Positions 41,256-59,176 of a DNA stretch of 64,000 bases are shown piece by piece. The notes beneath the pieces are model-generated. The model ran no database searches and was not told the DNA's origin. It worked only from the letters and a program-made list of their open reading frames with translations. The translations under genes were made by a program, and so were the position numbers. The stretch's first letter is position 1. Every line of letters begins with the position of its first letter. The stretch lies in the NCBI GenBank assembly GCA_964499705.1, contig CAZCME010000001.1:385243-449242 (forward strand), written 5' to 3'. This stretch comes from an uncultured bacterium (GTDB lineage Bacteria > UBA8481).

Positions 41256-42146
41256 ATGACGAAAGCACTTCCTCGCCTCGCCGCATCCATTCTCATTTCT
41301 GGCATTACGGCCGTCTCTGTCTCGGCCCAGGACGTCGCTGCTTTCTTCAAGGGGAACTGTGCAAGTTGCCACACGATCGGCGGCGGAAAGCTCACTGGTC
41401 CCGATCTCCGGAATGTCACAGAGCGACAGGACCGCGCTTGGCTCCAGCGTTTTATCTCCGATCCTCCCGCTCTTCTTTCGTCCGGAGACGTCTACGCGCA
41501 GAAACTTCTCTCCGAGGCTCGTGGTGTTGTCATGCAGAAGGTCGCGGGCATGACGCCGGACCTTGCGGGAAAGCTCCTCGATTTCATCGAGTCTGAATCG
41601 GGTAAGGAACCGTCGGCCTCCGCGAATGCCCTGCGACTCCTGACTCCGGAGGCCGCCGAAAACGGCCGGCTCATTTTCGTGGGCGACAGGCGTCTTTCTC
41701 TCGCCGGCGCCCCCTGCATCTCCTGCCACACGATCGAGGGGCTCCGCAATCTCGGCGGCGGAATGCTCGGCCCCGACCTTACCGAGGTCTACTCGCGGCT
41801 TGGCGGTGAGCGCGGACTCTCAGCCTGGCTTTCGTCTCCCGCGTCGCCGACGATGAAGCCGCTGTTTGGAGAGAATCCCTTTTCGGACGACGAGATCACG
41901 ATGCTCGTTTCCTTCTTCAAGTCGACGGCGGAACGCAGGAGCTTGATTTCCGCCGGGCCGGCGGGATCCGGGCACGACGTCAGTGGTCAGGCGCCGTCCC
42001 TGTTTAACTCCACGATGGTCTTCCTCGTCATCGGGCTCATCGCCACCGTCGCCGGTCTATCCTCCATGGACTGGATCTGGCGCCGCCGATTCCGCTCCGT
42101 GCGCGAACCTATGGTTCGTAGCAACCTCTCAAGGAGCGAAACATGA
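41256..42146 (+). CDS. narC: Periplasmic diheme cytochrome c with C-terminal membrane anchor (NarC-like)
   Basis: Signal peptide; CASCH and CISCH, each followed by GPDL; C-terminal TM; ATGA overlap with narG. Confidence 0.8.
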
Positions 42147-45100
42147 ACGACGACGAACGCAAATCATTGTGCTCCGGTTGCAACGCATCCGGTTCCAAGT
42201 GGATCGACGACCGCACGGATCCGGCGTCGCGGCAGTGGGAGGAGTTTTACCGCAACCGCTGGCAGCACGACAAGATCGTCCGTTCCACGCACGGCGTCAA
42301 CTGCACCGGAAGCTGCTCCTGGCAGATCTACGTCAAGGATGGGATCGTGACGTGGGAAATGCAGGGCCTCGATTATCCGTCGCTCGAAGCGGGCCTTCCG
42401 CCGTACGAGCCGCGCGGATGCCAGCGAGGGATTTCCTACTCCTGGTATCTCTACAGCCCCCTCCGCGTGAAGTATCCGTACATGCGCGGCGCGCTCCTTG
42501 ATCTCTGGCGGACAGCACGCGCCCGATACAGCGATCCGGTGGAAGCGTGGGCTTCCATCGTCGGAAATCCCGAGTCTCGGGCCCGCTACCAGCGCGCGCG
42601 GGGCAAGGGTGGATTCCGGCGGGTGTCCTGGGAGGAGTCGCGTGAGCTGATAGCCGCGGCGAATATCCACACGATCAAGGCGCACGGTCCCGACAGGATC
42701 GCGGGCTTCTCTCCGATCCCGGCGATGTCGATGCTCTCCTACGCGTCCGGCGCCCGCTTTCTCCAGTTGATGGGCGGGCTTTCGCTCTCCTTCTACGACT
42801 GGTATTGCGACCTTCCGAACGCTTCGCCGGAGACATGGGGCGAGCAGACGGATGTGAACGAGTCCGCGGACTGGTTCAATTCGAAGTTTCTCGCCGTGAT
42901 GGGTTCCAACCTGAACATGACGCGGACTCCCGATGTCCACTTTGCGGCGGAAGCGCGGAACAACGGGACGAAGATGGTCGTCTTCGCTCCGGACTTCAAC
43001 CAGGTCGCGAAATACGCCGACGAGTGGATCGCCGTGAACGCGGGCCAGGACGGCGCATGGTGGATGGCCGTCAATCATGTCCTCCTGAAGGAATTCCATC
43101 ACGAGCGGAAGATCCCTTACTTCACCGACTACATGAAGCGTTTCACCGACGCGCCGCATCTCGTGGAGCTGACTCCGGGCGGCAAGGACGAGCCCTGGTC
43201 GGCGGGCCGCCTCCTGCGCGCCGGCGAGCTCGCCCCCTACAAGGACGAAGAGAACGGCGAATGGAAATTCCTCTTCTGGGATGACGGCGACGACCGGCCG
43301 AAGATGCCGATGGGAAGCGTCGGCCACCGCTGGGGCGCCGTGAAGGGGAAGTGGAACCTCGTCCTGAAGGACGGGCGCGACGGTTCGGACATCGCGCCGC
43401 GATTGACGTTCCTCGAATCGAGCGACGCGGTCCTTCCCGTGCGCTTCGACGATTTCTCCGAGGGAACCGATCTCGTGCGGAGCGTTCCGGTCAAATACAT
43501 CGAGACATCGCGCGGTCGCGTCGCGGTCACGACCGCCTTCGACCTGATGATGGCGCAGTACGGGGTGTCGCGGGGACTGGCCGGAGATTATCCGCGTGAT
43601 TATGACGACGAGTCGTCCCCCTACACTCCGGCCTGGTCCGAGAAATACACCGGTATCGGCCGGGATAATCTCATCAAGTTCGCGCGGGAGTGGGCGGTCA
43701 CCGCCGAGAAGACCAACGGCAAATGCACGATCATCATCGGAGCGGGAATCAATCACTGGTATCACGCGAACCTGATGTACCGCGCCGGCATACACGCGCT
43801 CATCTTCTGCGGCTGCGTCGGCGTCAACGGCGGAGGCCTGGCGCACTATGTCGGGCAGGAGAAGCTGGCTCCGATGGAACCCTGGTCCGCCATCGCGTTC
43901 GCGAAGGACTGGTACGGCGCGTCGCGCCTGCAGAACGCTCCGAGCTGGCACTATGTCAACACCGACCAGTGGCGGTACGAGAAGGAGTTCACCGATTACC
44001 ACACGGTGCCGGCGAAGCAGGAACCCGGGAGCCTGGCGCAGGGGCACACCATGGACACGCAGGTCCGCGCCGTCCGGAACGGCTGGCTTCCGTTCTATCC
44101 GCAGTTCGGCACGTCGAGCGTGGCGCTCGTGAAGGAAGCCGAGGCTGCGGGCGCGAAGTCGGACAAGCAGGTGATCGACCATGTCGTCGCGCGGCTGAAG
44201 GAACGAAAGCTGAAGTTTGCCGTGGAGGATCCCGACGCGTCGGAGAACTGGCCGCGCATCTGGTTCATCTGGCGCGGCAACGCCTTGATGGCCTCGTCCA
44301 AGGGGCACGAGTATTTTCTCAATCACTACCTCGGCACGCATCACAACGACATCGCGAAGGAAACGGCGAAGGACTCCGTGAAGGAAGTGGTCTGGCACGA
44401 GATCGCTCCGCAGGGAAAACTGGATCTCGTCGTCGACCTGAACTTCCGCATGGACACATCCGCCCTGTATTCCGACATCGTTCTACCGGCCGCCACCTGG
44501 TACGAGAAGGCCGACCTGAACTCCACCGACATGCACTCCTTCATCCACCCGCTCTCCGCCGCGGTCGCGCCCTGCTGGGAATCGAAAAGCGACTGGGACA
44601 TCTTCAAGTCGATCGCGGAGAAATTCTCCGAGCTCGCCGCGCGCCATTTTCCTGATCCCGTCCGGGATCTCGTGACGCTTCCCCTCGCCCACGACACGGC
44701 CGCGGAGATCGCGCAGCCGAGGATCCAGGACTGGATCACGGGGGAGGTCGAGGCCATTCCCGGGAAGACGATGCCCGGCATGGCGATCATGACGCGCGAC
44801 TACAGGAATCTCCACAACCAGTACATCTCCTTCGGCCCGCTCGTCCGCGCCAACGGCCTCGGCGCGCACGGCACGAAGTACGCCATCGATGATTTCTACG
44901 ATGCGATGACGAAGACGCATCCGATCGTTTCGTGGGGAGGAAAGACGTATCCGTCCCTGAAGAAGGACGTGCACGCTTGCGATGTCGTGCTGCACCTGGC
45001 ATCCGTGACGAACGGCGAACTCGCGTACCGGTCGTATAAGAACATGGAGGAGAAAGTCGGGCTGCCGTTGGCCGAGCTGGCGGAGAAGAGCCGCTCCGTG

Positions 45101-57935: not shown

Positions 57936-59176
57936 ACGTAACGCAGACCGGATGCCAGGGAGCGGAAGCATTGTCCGCCGGATCGCGGACGGAGAAAGCG
58001 CTCAGGGCCGGCGTCCTGCTGGGCGGAGCCGGTTTTGTCGCGGGGCTTTTGTGGGCGCCGGACCGGATCTGGCCCGCGTTCCTCATCGCCGTCACGTATC
58101 TCGTCCACCTCGGTCTTGCCGCCGCGTTCTTCCTCGCCGTGCAGAACACGACCAAGGCGGGATGGAGCGTTCTCCTGCGCCGCGTGCCGGAAGCGATGAC
58201 GGCATCCCTCGCGTGGGCGGCGCTCCTCGTTCCCATGCTCCTCTTCGGCGTGCATGAGCTCTATTCGTGGACGCATGAGGACGCCTTCACCGGAGCGCAT
58301 GCCTGGATGGCGGGGAAGAAGGCCTGGCTCAATCTCCCGTTCTTCTCCGTCCGCACCTTCCTGTATTTCGCGGCGTGGCTCCTGCCCGCCGCTCTTCTCG
58401 TCCGGAACTCCCGCCTCCAGGATGACGACGGTCTCATCATCCACACCGTGCGCAACAGGAAAGTCTCCGCGATCTTTCTCTTCCTCTTCGCGATCACCGT
58501 CTCGGCCGCGTCGTTCGACTGGCTGATGTCGCTGGAGCCGGAATGGTACAGCACGATCTTCGGCGCCTATGTCTTCGCGGGGCTCTTTCTCACCGGCTCC
58601 GCCGCCACGACGATCGTCGTCATCCTCCTCAGGCGCAAGGGGTCCTTCCGCAAATCGAAATTCTGCCGCTTCGATCATCTGGGCGAAATCGCCCCGGAGG
58701 AATCGCTCATCTCTCCCGCCCACCTGCACGATCTCGGCAAGCTTGTCTTCGCCTTCTCGTCCTTCTGGGCCTATCTCTGGTTCTGCCAGTTCATGCTGAT
58801 CTGGTACACGAACATGCCGGAGGAAAGCCTCTACTTCGCCCGGCGAATGCGCGGCGGATGGGAGACATTCTTCTGGATCAACGTGGCTCTCAACTGGGTG
58901 ATTCCCTTCTTCGGCCTCATGTCCCGGACCTTCAAGCGCGACGAGCGGATCCTGCTGCTCGTTTCCCTGTCCGTGCTCCTGGGCCACTGGGTTGATCTGT
59001 ACGTGATGGTCCAGCCCGTCTTCTTCGATCGTCCGGTTCTCGGATTGTGGGAACTGGCTCCGATGTGCGGCGTCGCCGCGCTCTTTTTACTGACGACCTT
59101 CGTCCGTCTCCGCGCGGTTCCGCTGATCCCCCTGAGGGACCCGCTGGTGGAGGAGAGTGTGCTGCACCGGATGTGA
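57932..59176 (+). CDS. actF: Alternative complex III subunit F (membrane)
   Basis: AGWS..RRVPEA, WLN.PFF..R, DWLMSLEPEWYSTIFG, HDLGK, QFMLIWYTNMPEE. Confidence 0.9.
   Translation: MNVTQTGCQGAEALSAGSRTEKALRAGVLLGGAGFVAGLLWAPDRIWPAFLIAVTYLVHLGLAAAFFLAVQNTTKAGWSVLLRRVPEAMTASLAWAALLVPMLLFGVHELYSWTHEDAFTGAHAWMAGKKAWLNLPFFSVRTFLYFAAWLLPAALLVRNSRLQDDDGLIIHTVRNRKVSAIFLFLFAITVSAASFDWLMSLEPEWYSTIFGAYVFAGLFLTGSAATTIVVILLRRKGSFRKSKFCRFDHLGEIAPEESLISPAHLHDLGKLVFAFSSFWAYLWFCQFMLIWYTNMPEESLYFARRMRGGWETFFWINVALNWVIPFFGLMSRTFKRDERILLLVSLSVLLGHWVDLYVMVQPVFFDRPVLGLWELAPMCGVAALFLLTTFVRLRAVPLIPLRDPLVEESVLHRM

Follow-up and report, generated by a model that had tools for sequence, protein, structure and literature searches.

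A nitrate reductase–alternative complex III gene cluster as a possible serial nitrate-respiring chain in an uncultured UBA8481 bacterium

The DNA analysed here is a stretch of 64,000 nucleotides (the window) from an uncultured bacterium of the lineage UBA8481 (assembly GCA_964499705.1, contig CAZCME010000001.1, positions 385,243–449,242). It contains 13 consecutive open reading frames (ORFs) on the plus strand, narC-narGHJI-narK-narK-actABCDEF (41256–59176), in which the genes of a nitrate reductase (Nar) are followed by those of an alternative complex III (ACIII). We interpret the 13 genes as one operon for a two-enzyme, serial nitrate-respiring chain in which ACIII feeds Nar through the diheme cytochrome NarC, and assign this reading a probability of roughly 0.55. 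An earlier note, made from the sequence alone, had proposed such a route within a Nar-ACIII supercomplex that conserves extra energy. The route from ACIII through NarC to Nar gained indirect support from conserved linkage of the genes, from an additional ACIII copy in some genomes, from domain homology between NarC and ActA, and from a predicted NarC-NarI complex; the stable supercomplex and the extra proton translocation are presumed only.

Organization and identity of the 13 genes

Genes were identified with Pfam and NCBIfam profiles, and the start codons are the most plausible choice for each ORF. The features of the cluster are as follows.

narC, 41256..42146, plus strand: periplasmic diheme class I cytochrome c (Pfam/NCBIfam)
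narG, 42143..45823, plus strand: catalytic molybdopterin subunit, cytoplasmic type (TIGR01580, 1499 bits, cut-off 1084)
narH, 45864..47354, plus strand: iron-sulfur subunit (TIGR01660, 653.7 bits, cut-off 524)
narJ, 47376..48002, plus strand: assembly chaperone (Pfam Nitrate_red_del, 28.9 bits, cut-off 22.2)
narI, 47992..48696, plus strand: diheme b membrane subunit (Pfam, 190.9 bits; TIGR00351, 110.8 bits, cut-off 105.6)
narK-like MFS transporter 1, 48693..50276, plus strand: MFS_1 match (TIGR00886, 181.6 bits, under the cut-off of 311.7)
narK-like MFS transporter 2, 50273..51712, plus strand: GTG start (TIGR00886, 290.8 bits, under the cut-off of 311.7; NarU model, 381.7 bits)
actA, 51716..52399, plus strand: membrane-anchored pentaheme cytochrome c (6btm_A, E 5.9e-41)
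actB, 52396..55422, plus strand: Tat-exported MopB-like/4Fe-4S fusion (6f0k_B, E 3e-176)
actC, 55415..56794, plus strand: NrfD-like quinol-binding membrane subunit (Pfam NrfD; 6btm_C, E 1.6e-186)
actD, 56791..57333, plus strand: PF11821 match (188 bits)
actE, 57330..57935, plus strand: membrane-anchored monoheme cytochrome c (6f0k_E, E 1.6e-19)
actF, 57932..59176, plus strand: second NrfD-like membrane subunit (no Pfam match; 6f0k_F, E 4e-59)
weak sigma-70-like promoter candidate before narC, 41141..41168, plus strand: TTCACA-16-TACAGT, 9/12 consensus matches

The earlier note had described the same 13 genes, with no gap above 40 nt and 3 nt between the second narK and actA, and both the gene calls and the spacing were reproduced here. 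With the best start codons, overlaps of 4–11 nt occur at ten junctions; the gaps are 40 nt (narG-narH), 21 nt (narH-narJ) and 3 nt (narK2-actA). This packing is operon-like. A Shine-Dalgarno-like GGAGGA lies about 15 nt before the ATG of actA, inside the end of narK2. The earlier note had regarded an independent promoter before actA with oxygen-linked expression as evidence against its reading; a consensus scan detected a single promoter-like site ahead of narC and none ahead of actA, and the promoter and terminator site counts of the region were not above those of shuffled sequences. A sigma-54-type pattern was discarded, as its two one-mismatch matches compare with 0.8 expected and 16 of 100 shuffles scored as high. 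A perfect 7-bp inverted repeat, GGCATGG-N6-CCATGCC (41224–41243), ends 13 nt before the narC start and may be a regulatory hairpin or binding site; no obvious Shine-Dalgarno sequence was seen between it and the narC ATG.

NarG, NarH and NarI all exceed the curated equivalog cut-offs of NCBIfam. The narJ product scores 35.4 bits with the NCBIfam narJ model, under its cut-off of 59.4, and the two co-encoded NarK-family-like carriers are both under the NarK family cut-off. NarG matches E. coli NarG (1q16_A) over its full length with 1281 bits, against only 101 bits for the periplasmic nitrite oxidoreductase (NXR) of Kuenenia (7b04_B), and no twin-arginine motif was found at its N-terminus; by these two sequence criteria, NarG is not of the periplasmic NXR type of Nitrospira and anammox bacteria. 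The four heme histidines of NarI align with those of E. coli NarI, and H57, H67, H185 and H203 are invariant in 28 NarI sequences from nar-act clusters. Equally invariant in these sequences is an Arg at the position of E. coli NarI K86 (quinol site), which is also present in 11 of 12 NarC-type operons. NarI proteins of non-NarC operons, which share only 26–36% identity in the alignment, carry H, A, Q, K or S at this position.

ActA contains five CXXCH motifs and ActE one, each protein with an N-terminal hydrophobic helix. ActB has the twin-arginine motif RRSFLK and the Pfam domains Molybdop_Fe4S4, Molydop_binding and Fer4. Five subunits (ActA, B, C, E and F) each match the chain of the same name in the solved ACIII structures 6btm or 6f0k, and the gene order is actA-B-C-D-E-F. 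Judged by sequence, the act genes are an alternative complex III with all six subunits, for which menaquinol:cytochrome c activity is predicted only. ACIII is described as coupling the oxidation of quinol to proton translocation (PMC7439408).

A cluster of the same order was reported in 2023 (PMC10732223), with Nar genes upstream of the six genes in 13 instances from Planctomycetota and KSB1 metagenome-assembled genomes (MAGs); the belief that the linkage was unpublished is thus in part wrong. It was described as nar, a 5-heme cytochrome, a 4Fe4S-molybdopterin fusion, NrfD, actD, 'ccoP' and 'ccoII', and one of our loci (L079) has a MAG name given in that paper (OFTM77). The cluster was not identified there as ACIII. 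On the basis of HHpred results and the upstream nar genes, its authors proposed a new nitrite reductase, membrane-bound and akin to NrfAH, with a component of the respiratory chain as the alternative; nitrite is what Nar produces. For the genes studied here a nitrite reductase is highly improbable: ActA, B, C, E and F match solved ACIII chain for chain and ActD matches PF11821, the heme-binding motifs of ActA and ActE are all CXXCH, Pfam and NCBIfam found no NrfA-like domain in these two proteins, and the genome has a genuine NrfHA at another place. The subunit-by-subunit matches to solved structures indicate that the six-gene cluster of PMC10732223 is likewise ACIII.

NarC and the proposed electron path

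In gene order and architecture, the nar part of the cluster is like the NarCGHI system of Thermus thermophilus (narCGHJIKT), in which narC comes first and specifies a periplasmic, membrane-bound diheme protein, followed by narGHJI and two transporters. The Thermus NarC is a fourth subunit of Nar that interacts with NarI in a two-hybrid assay and is needed for maturation of NarG (PMC7694296). Unlike the cluster described here, the Thermus operon is depicted in that paper with dnrST and drpAB at its flanks and without act genes.

The window NarC begins with a signal peptide, has its two CXXCH motifs at residues 35 and 154 and ends in a C-terminal membrane helix (residues 253–271) with a basic tail. 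A search at E ≤ 1e-10 gave 2204 homologues; among the best 120 listed, those with names carry generic names only. Both CXXCH motifs, M93, M200, the C-terminal helix and the basic tail are kept in an alignment of 40 NarC sequences. A set of nine carrier genomes was examined, comprising this genome (G000) and eight others (G041–G045, G071, G134 and G169). A near-full-length NarC homologue (34–45% identity) is encoded directly upstream of narG in all five carrier genomes tested, and also in G322. By these sequence comparisons, NarC is the only c-type cytochrome conserved along with the module. NarC-type nar operons are common in a 400-genome sample, with narG preceded by a NarC-like gene in at least 11 operons (L119–L122, L130–L137).

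Structure prediction of the NarC-NarI complex, which the earlier note had suggested modelling, gave an ipSAE of 0.76 (median of three runs), compared with 0.22 for the best of three controls. Among solved complexes 116 of 157 attained the ipSAE mark, and among mismatched pairs 2 of 215 did so. The prediction was fed with author-made alignments of both proteins, and a pass is support for binding rather than proof. The runs agreed in at least 92% of contacts, with a partner pLDDT of at least 81. The predicted interface comprises two contacts: NarC helix 253–278 packs against NarI helices around residues 88–103 and 145, and the NarC heme-2 domain (142–171 and 197–203) sits on periplasmic loops of NarI. 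The model supports binding of NarC to NarI, and the predicted contact agrees with the two-hybrid interaction of the Thermus proteins (PMC7694296).

The NarC heme-1 domain (residues 29–126) has its best match among solved structures in residues 58–153 of 6btm_A (E 3e-10), the N-terminal domain of Flavobacterium johnsoniae ActA. In F. johnsoniae this domain is mobile and membrane-anchored, carries a sixth heme and was proposed to shuttle electrons to cytochrome aa3; the ActA of Rhodothermus marinus has no sixth-heme domain, and its caa3 oxidase has an extra heme c (PMC8552683, Lorencik et al.). In all six non-nar relatives examined (five Elusimicrobia, one Planctomycetia), ActA carries a heme-1-type domain as an in-frame fusion, with the architecture signal peptide, class I cytochrome c, helix and pentaheme (Pfam on L058). 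Searched against this genome, the domain matched NarC and ActA only. CXXCH motifs, counted in stop-to-stop ActA frames, number five in all 47 nar-linked loci; in 16 other loci they number six in ten and five in four, and two are cut by a contig end. The sequences thus suggest that ActA lacks the shuttle domain in just those loci where NarC provides it. By analogy, an ActA without the sixth-heme domain combined with a NarC that carries it would follow the same logic as the R. marinus caa3 system.

The cluster is like the F. johnsoniae ACIII-cytochrome aa3 supercomplex (6BTM) in that all Act subunits match; unlike that system, whose shuttle domain belongs to ActA and whose acceptor is an oxidase, it has the domain on NarC, with Nar as the proposed acceptor. 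Its likeness to R. marinus ACIII/caa3 (6F0K) lies in a pentaheme ActA without the sixth-heme domain and an extra heme c on the acceptor (PMC8552683), and ActB, ActE and ActF have their best matches in the R. marinus chains of 6f0k. The R. marinus acceptor, in contrast, is a heme-copper oxidase encoded beside act, whereas here it would be a molybdoenzyme.

The 'NarC' matches of Elusimicrobia were considered as a separate narC before actA and rejected, as they comprise only the heme-1 domain, fused to ActA. These belong to a variant ACIII, found in seven Elusimicrobia/Planctomycetia loci (L018, L055, L058, L063, L064, L065 and L073), with a fused sixth-heme ActA and no nar genes. The matches to ActE and ActF are about 2.3 kb apart in all seven, and in the three with listed ORFs (L018, L055 and L058) a protein of 790–904 aa with seven CXXCH motifs stands at the actE position.

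In the proposed path (menaquinol, ACIII, NarC, NarI, NarH, NarG, nitrate), ACIII (ActABCDEF) would oxidise menaquinol on the periplasmic side, and electrons would pass via ActB and ActA, and possibly ActE, to heme 1 and then heme 2 of NarC. NarC would act as the fourth, membrane-anchored subunit of a Thermus-like NarCGHI, its heme-2 domain and C-terminal helix seated on NarI. The two b hemes of NarI would carry the electrons across the membrane to NarH and NarG, where nitrate would be reduced in the cytoplasm, and the two NarK-like carriers would exchange nitrate and nitrite. Nar would then stand towards ACIII as a caa3 or aa3 oxidase does in aerobic chains.

Energy conservation by NarGHI consists only of the redox loop on NarI: protons of the quinol are released outside, nitrate reduction takes up protons inside, and a large part of the potential difference from menaquinol to nitrate is wasted. 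Feeding of Nar by ACIII through NarC would, if true, provide a second coupling site for nitrate respiration besides charge separation across NarI, any proton translocation by ACIII being added to the classical loop. The carrier phyla would thereby probably gain extra energy from nitrate. The electron step from ActA/ActE to NarC, its direction and the extra proton yield are elements that we infer. A stronger form of the proposal, in which NarCGHI is an obligate cytochrome c:nitrate oxidoreductase in a stable supercomplex with a dedicated ACIII, NarC is a tethered shuttle and the H+/2e- ratio is about double that of the NarGHI loop, is held only tentatively and is rather doubtful. For electron exchange through NarC, a precedent was proposed in the NXR of Nitrobacter, in which a NarC homologue would link a NarI-type cytochrome b with periplasmic cytochrome c (PMC7694296).

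Conservation of the linkage and respiratory partners of the carriers

Conservation was examined by a scan with ActC, one genome per species, that gave 586 relatives; the best 80 loci were kept and the window proteins were mapped onto them by tblastn. Fifty-six loci were informative, in that their ActA match is preceded by 1 kb or more of sequence. Among these, 45 carry narI (together with narGHJ as far as the locus extends) upstream of actA on the same strand, directly before it in 32 and with 1–3.5 kb between, mostly narK genes, in 13. Two further short loci have the end of narI before actA. A NarK-like gene follows actF in 17 loci, in which the act genes therefore lie inside the nar operon. 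The search for nar-act synteny proposed in the earlier note thus found the linkage in most informative loci. The carriers are labelled as Geothrix (four cultured species and MAGs), Holophagales, Blastocatellia/Pyrinomonadaceae, Thermoanaerobaculia, Vicinamibacteria, Ignavibacteriota/Bacteroidota/Chlorobi-labelled MAGs, Myxococcota/'Deltaproteobacteria' and Planctomycetota. At least four phyla (Acidobacteriota, Ignavibacteriota/Bacteroidota, Myxococcota and Planctomycetota) share the linkage. The remaining 11 informative loci have no nar and come from Elusimicrobia (six), Bdellovibrionota (two), Planctomycetia, Polyangiaceae and Ginsengibacter (one each).

Among 400 other genomes, ActC (E ≤ 1e-30) was found in 129, NarH (E ≤ 1e-100) in 26 and both in 17. 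In G071, G134 and G169, which are among the four best ActC matches (65–71% identity; NarH 71–74% identity), the two genes are 4.5–9 kb apart on one strand. G322 contains narC-narGHJI-actA-actB, running into a contig end. In 12 representative loci, the 69 ORFs examined downstream of actF include no oxidase; the recurrent neighbours there are molybdenum-cofactor synthesis, hemerythrin, YwiC-like and radical-SAM genes, with NrfA once (L019).

In a quick maximum-likelihood search of ActC (90 rows, with eleven loci of less than 400 residues left out), a 74-row clade with an SH-aLRT of 99 contains all 47 nar-linked rows, and the window ActC groups with an Elusimicrobia/Planctomycetia set (support 98). 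Conservation within the lineage of the organism itself was rejected, as no NarH (E ≤ 1e-100) was found in three genomes of the same family and one of the same order. The ActC proteins of the family and order genomes are only 57% and 50% identical to that of the window and fall outside the nar-linked clade. With no NarH in relatives and a distant ActC, the module looks laterally acquired, and the sequences indicate that the operon probably was.

The apparent lateral acquisition would fit act genes that are adjacent to nar without functional coupling, in a mobile respiratory island whose ACIII serves aerobic oxidases and travels with nar. This explanation also gains from the nar-linked ACIII being the only one in five carriers (see below). 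It is nevertheless very unlikely in view of the translational coupling, the position of act between narI and narK in 17 loci, the linkage over at least four phyla, the separate oxidase-linked ACIII in four genomes and the complementarity of the NarC and ActA domains.

The source assembly (4.67 Mb, 45 contigs, 96% complete) contains a single ActD and a single NarG, each located in the window. The inventory of oxidases and nitrite reductases that the earlier note had called for gave three heme-copper oxidase subunit I genes in this genome, all outside the window, together with nrfHA and no NirK or NirS. Two of the three are A-type (aa3-type) cytochrome c oxidases with CoxB. The third heme-copper member (G000:C3:241913-243247; L003:622-2958) is a 778-aa protein with 212 bits to PF00115 and no NCBIfam match at E 1e-10, and may be a quinol-dependent NO reductase-like enzyme. 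One Rieske/cytochrome b6-type complex shares its contig with one of the oxidases. The nrfH-nrfA pair lies about 10 kb beyond actF (G000:C1:454789-456751), about 5.5 kb past the end of the window, and comprises an nrfH-like gene of 167 aa with four CXXCH motifs directly before nrfA (PF02335, 429 bits). A response-regulator-like ORF lies just downstream of nrfA on the minus strand. With nrfH-nrfA present, the organism looks like a nitrate ammonifier (DNRA, the dissimilatory reduction of nitrate to ammonium). No NirS, NirK or RuBisCO was found in this 96% complete genome, and a nos_propeller search of it found no NosZ; the search control was positive in no control genome, though NosZ was detected in G041.

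None of the nine carriers contains NirK at the family cut-off or a convincing NirS, for which the best matches cover only part of the profile and reach 30 and 26 bits. One carrier (G041) has NosZ and four (G000, G041, G043 and G071) have NrfA, which leaves five carriers without NrfA, NirK, NirS or NosZ. The suggestion in the earlier note that the module feeds downstream denitrification is weakened by this inventory; as to its alternative of feeding DNRA, the NrfA of this genome has its own NrfH beside it. A survey of Acidobacteriota MAGs reported narGHI and nrfAH, with no nirK, nirS or norBC, and G. fermentans is described there as reducing nitrate to ammonia (PMC8100337).

A second ActD lies 4–5 kb from an oxidase subunit I gene in four of the eight other carriers (G041, G043, G044 and G045), and the second-copy ActC of G043, G044 and G045 falls outside the 74-row nar-containing clade. 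In these four carriers, which have a second, oxidase-linked ACIII, the nar-linked copy is therefore an extra one. A cytochrome b gene is present in each of the five carriers with a single ACIII, on the same contig as an oxidase gene in G000, G042 and G071.

Several observations weigh against the serial chain. With its four histidines and a basic residue at the K86 position, NarI may, judged by sequence, be able to oxidise menaquinol itself, in which case ACIII would be dispensable for nitrate reduction. Heme-copper (cytochrome c) oxidases are present in all nine carriers, so that ACIII could serve them too, and the nar-linked ACIII is the only ACIII in five of the nine. The Thermus NarC, unlike the one proposed here, was suggested to carry electrons out of Nar, to Nir and Nor, rather than in (PMC7694296). 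NarC-type nar operons also occur without adjacent act genes, clearly so in G039 and G250; in seven others ActC is on another contig, and two of these seven (G168 and G346) have a nar contig that ends soon after narK. On the quick-search ActC tree the label 'nar' needs 13 changes and is not strictly monophyletic, with Elusimicrobia, Bdellovibrionota, two or three oxidase-linked rows and fused forms nested inside the nar clade.

Most of these points would fit two parallel branches, in which NarGHI, as in E. coli, draws menaquinol electrons through NarI, ACIII works as a general anaerobic quinol:cytochrome c reductase supplying NrfA, peroxidases, extracellular or metal reduction or micro-oxic oxidases, and NarC serves as an outlet like that suggested for Thermus. 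The nrfHA genes some 10 kb downstream, NrfA in locus L019 and in four of the nine carriers, and the quinol-competent appearance of NarI all speak for such an arrangement. Parallel branches do not account for the five carriers without NrfA, NirK, NirS and NosZ, for the separate oxidase-linked ACIII kept by four carriers, for the sixth-heme domain missing from ActA where NarC carries it, or for act genes between narI and narK in 17 loci, and where NrfA is present in this genome it has an NrfH of its own. We give parallel branches a probability of about one in four and retain the serial chain as the preferred reading.

The earlier note had also considered an enzyme running in the opposite direction, as a Nitrobacter-type NXR whose electrons exit via NarI and NarC to cytochrome c and oxidases, with ACIII reversed to reduce quinone in reverse electron flow. 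The sequence is compatible with it: cytoplasmic NXR and NarG share a clade, and sequence does not reveal which way the enzyme runs (PMC10732223). A closely similar cluster, with a homologue of NarC, is noted for the Nitrobacter NXR (PMC7694296), and this genome has two aa3-type oxidases. The remaining evidence makes the reverse direction very improbable. No RuBisCO was found in the 96% complete genome and nrfHA is nearby; molybdenum-cofactor synthesis genes and NrfA recur as neighbours, as in anaerobic respiration. The carrier lineages are not known to include nitrite oxidisers. The cultured carriers are Geothrix species, of which G. fermentans is reported to reduce nitrate to ammonia (PMC8100337).

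Known systems and other features of the window

ACIII, NarGHI, the Thermus NarC and nar genes upstream of the six-gene cluster are already known. A complex III beside Nar has other parallels: haloarchaeal Nar has Rieske/cytochrome b genes alongside. In Thermogutta terrifontis, bc1 genes lie beside narGHI and complex III was suggested to take part in nitrate respiration; unlike the cluster studied here, the Thermogutta module is described as Rieske/cytochrome b, with no NarC (PMC5673643). The text of PMC10732223, its Fig. 6 and Supplementary Table 1 aside, does not mention NarC, the cross-phylum spread or the relocation of the domain. In the literature searched, to which the ACIII gene-cluster reviews, the original 6BTM paper, the Pyranulibacter description and the figures and supplements of PMC10732223 did not belong, we found no report of the cross-phylum spread including cultured Geothrix, of a second, oxidase-linked ACIII in carriers, of the scarcity of other periplasmic N-oxide reductases, of the conserved NarC or of a transfer of the sixth-heme domain from ActA onto NarC; PMC10732223 is the only paper there to report the linkage itself.

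If the serial chain is real, Nar would be the first partner enzyme of ACIII that is neither an oxidase nor photosynthetic, the role of NarC would be explained, and a gene cluster left as an undescribed complex in the 2023 paper would be reassigned. It would change the growth yields expected of abundant nitrate reducers of soil, sediment and wastewater (Geothrix, Blastocatellia/Pyrinomonadaceae, Ignavibacteria and some Planctomycetota). The stronger form of the proposal would be a chain of the 'complex III + complex IV' type for nitrate, occurring widely among soil Acidobacteriota, Ignavibacteriota and other groups. Since cultured Geothrix carry the module, the idea is directly testable.

The statement in the earlier note that no oxidase or SCO gene stands behind actF was borne out: no heme-copper oxidase or SCO gene was found there, and the neighbours are a 105-aa plus-strand ORF (59185–59502) without a Pfam match and a convergent minus-strand gene for a 1522-aa TPR/CBM48 protein (Pfam). 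Upstream, narC is adjacent to a divergent radical-SAM gene. Genes for radical-SAM proteins, several of which have B12-binding and DUF4070 domains, are found repeatedly beside nar-act clusters in distant phyla, as are YwiC-like and hemerythrin genes. The radical-SAM genes located are as follows.

window, 39836–41044, minus strand: divergent radical-SAM gene upstream of narC
L079:13733-15037: radical-SAM gene beside nar-act
L041:13887-15428: radical-SAM gene beside nar-act
L048:14549-16045: radical-SAM gene beside nar-act

Elsewhere in the window, an adjacent ORF pair on the minus strand (19847–21492) corresponds to the two halves of Pfam DUF4331 (profile positions 1–235 and 250–421) and may be a split or frameshifted gene. 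A second minus-strand region (30649–35001) contains BatA/VWA, DUF58 and MoxR-type AAA genes resembling an aerotolerance operon, bordered by very large ORFs (923–1006 aa) without a Pfam match.

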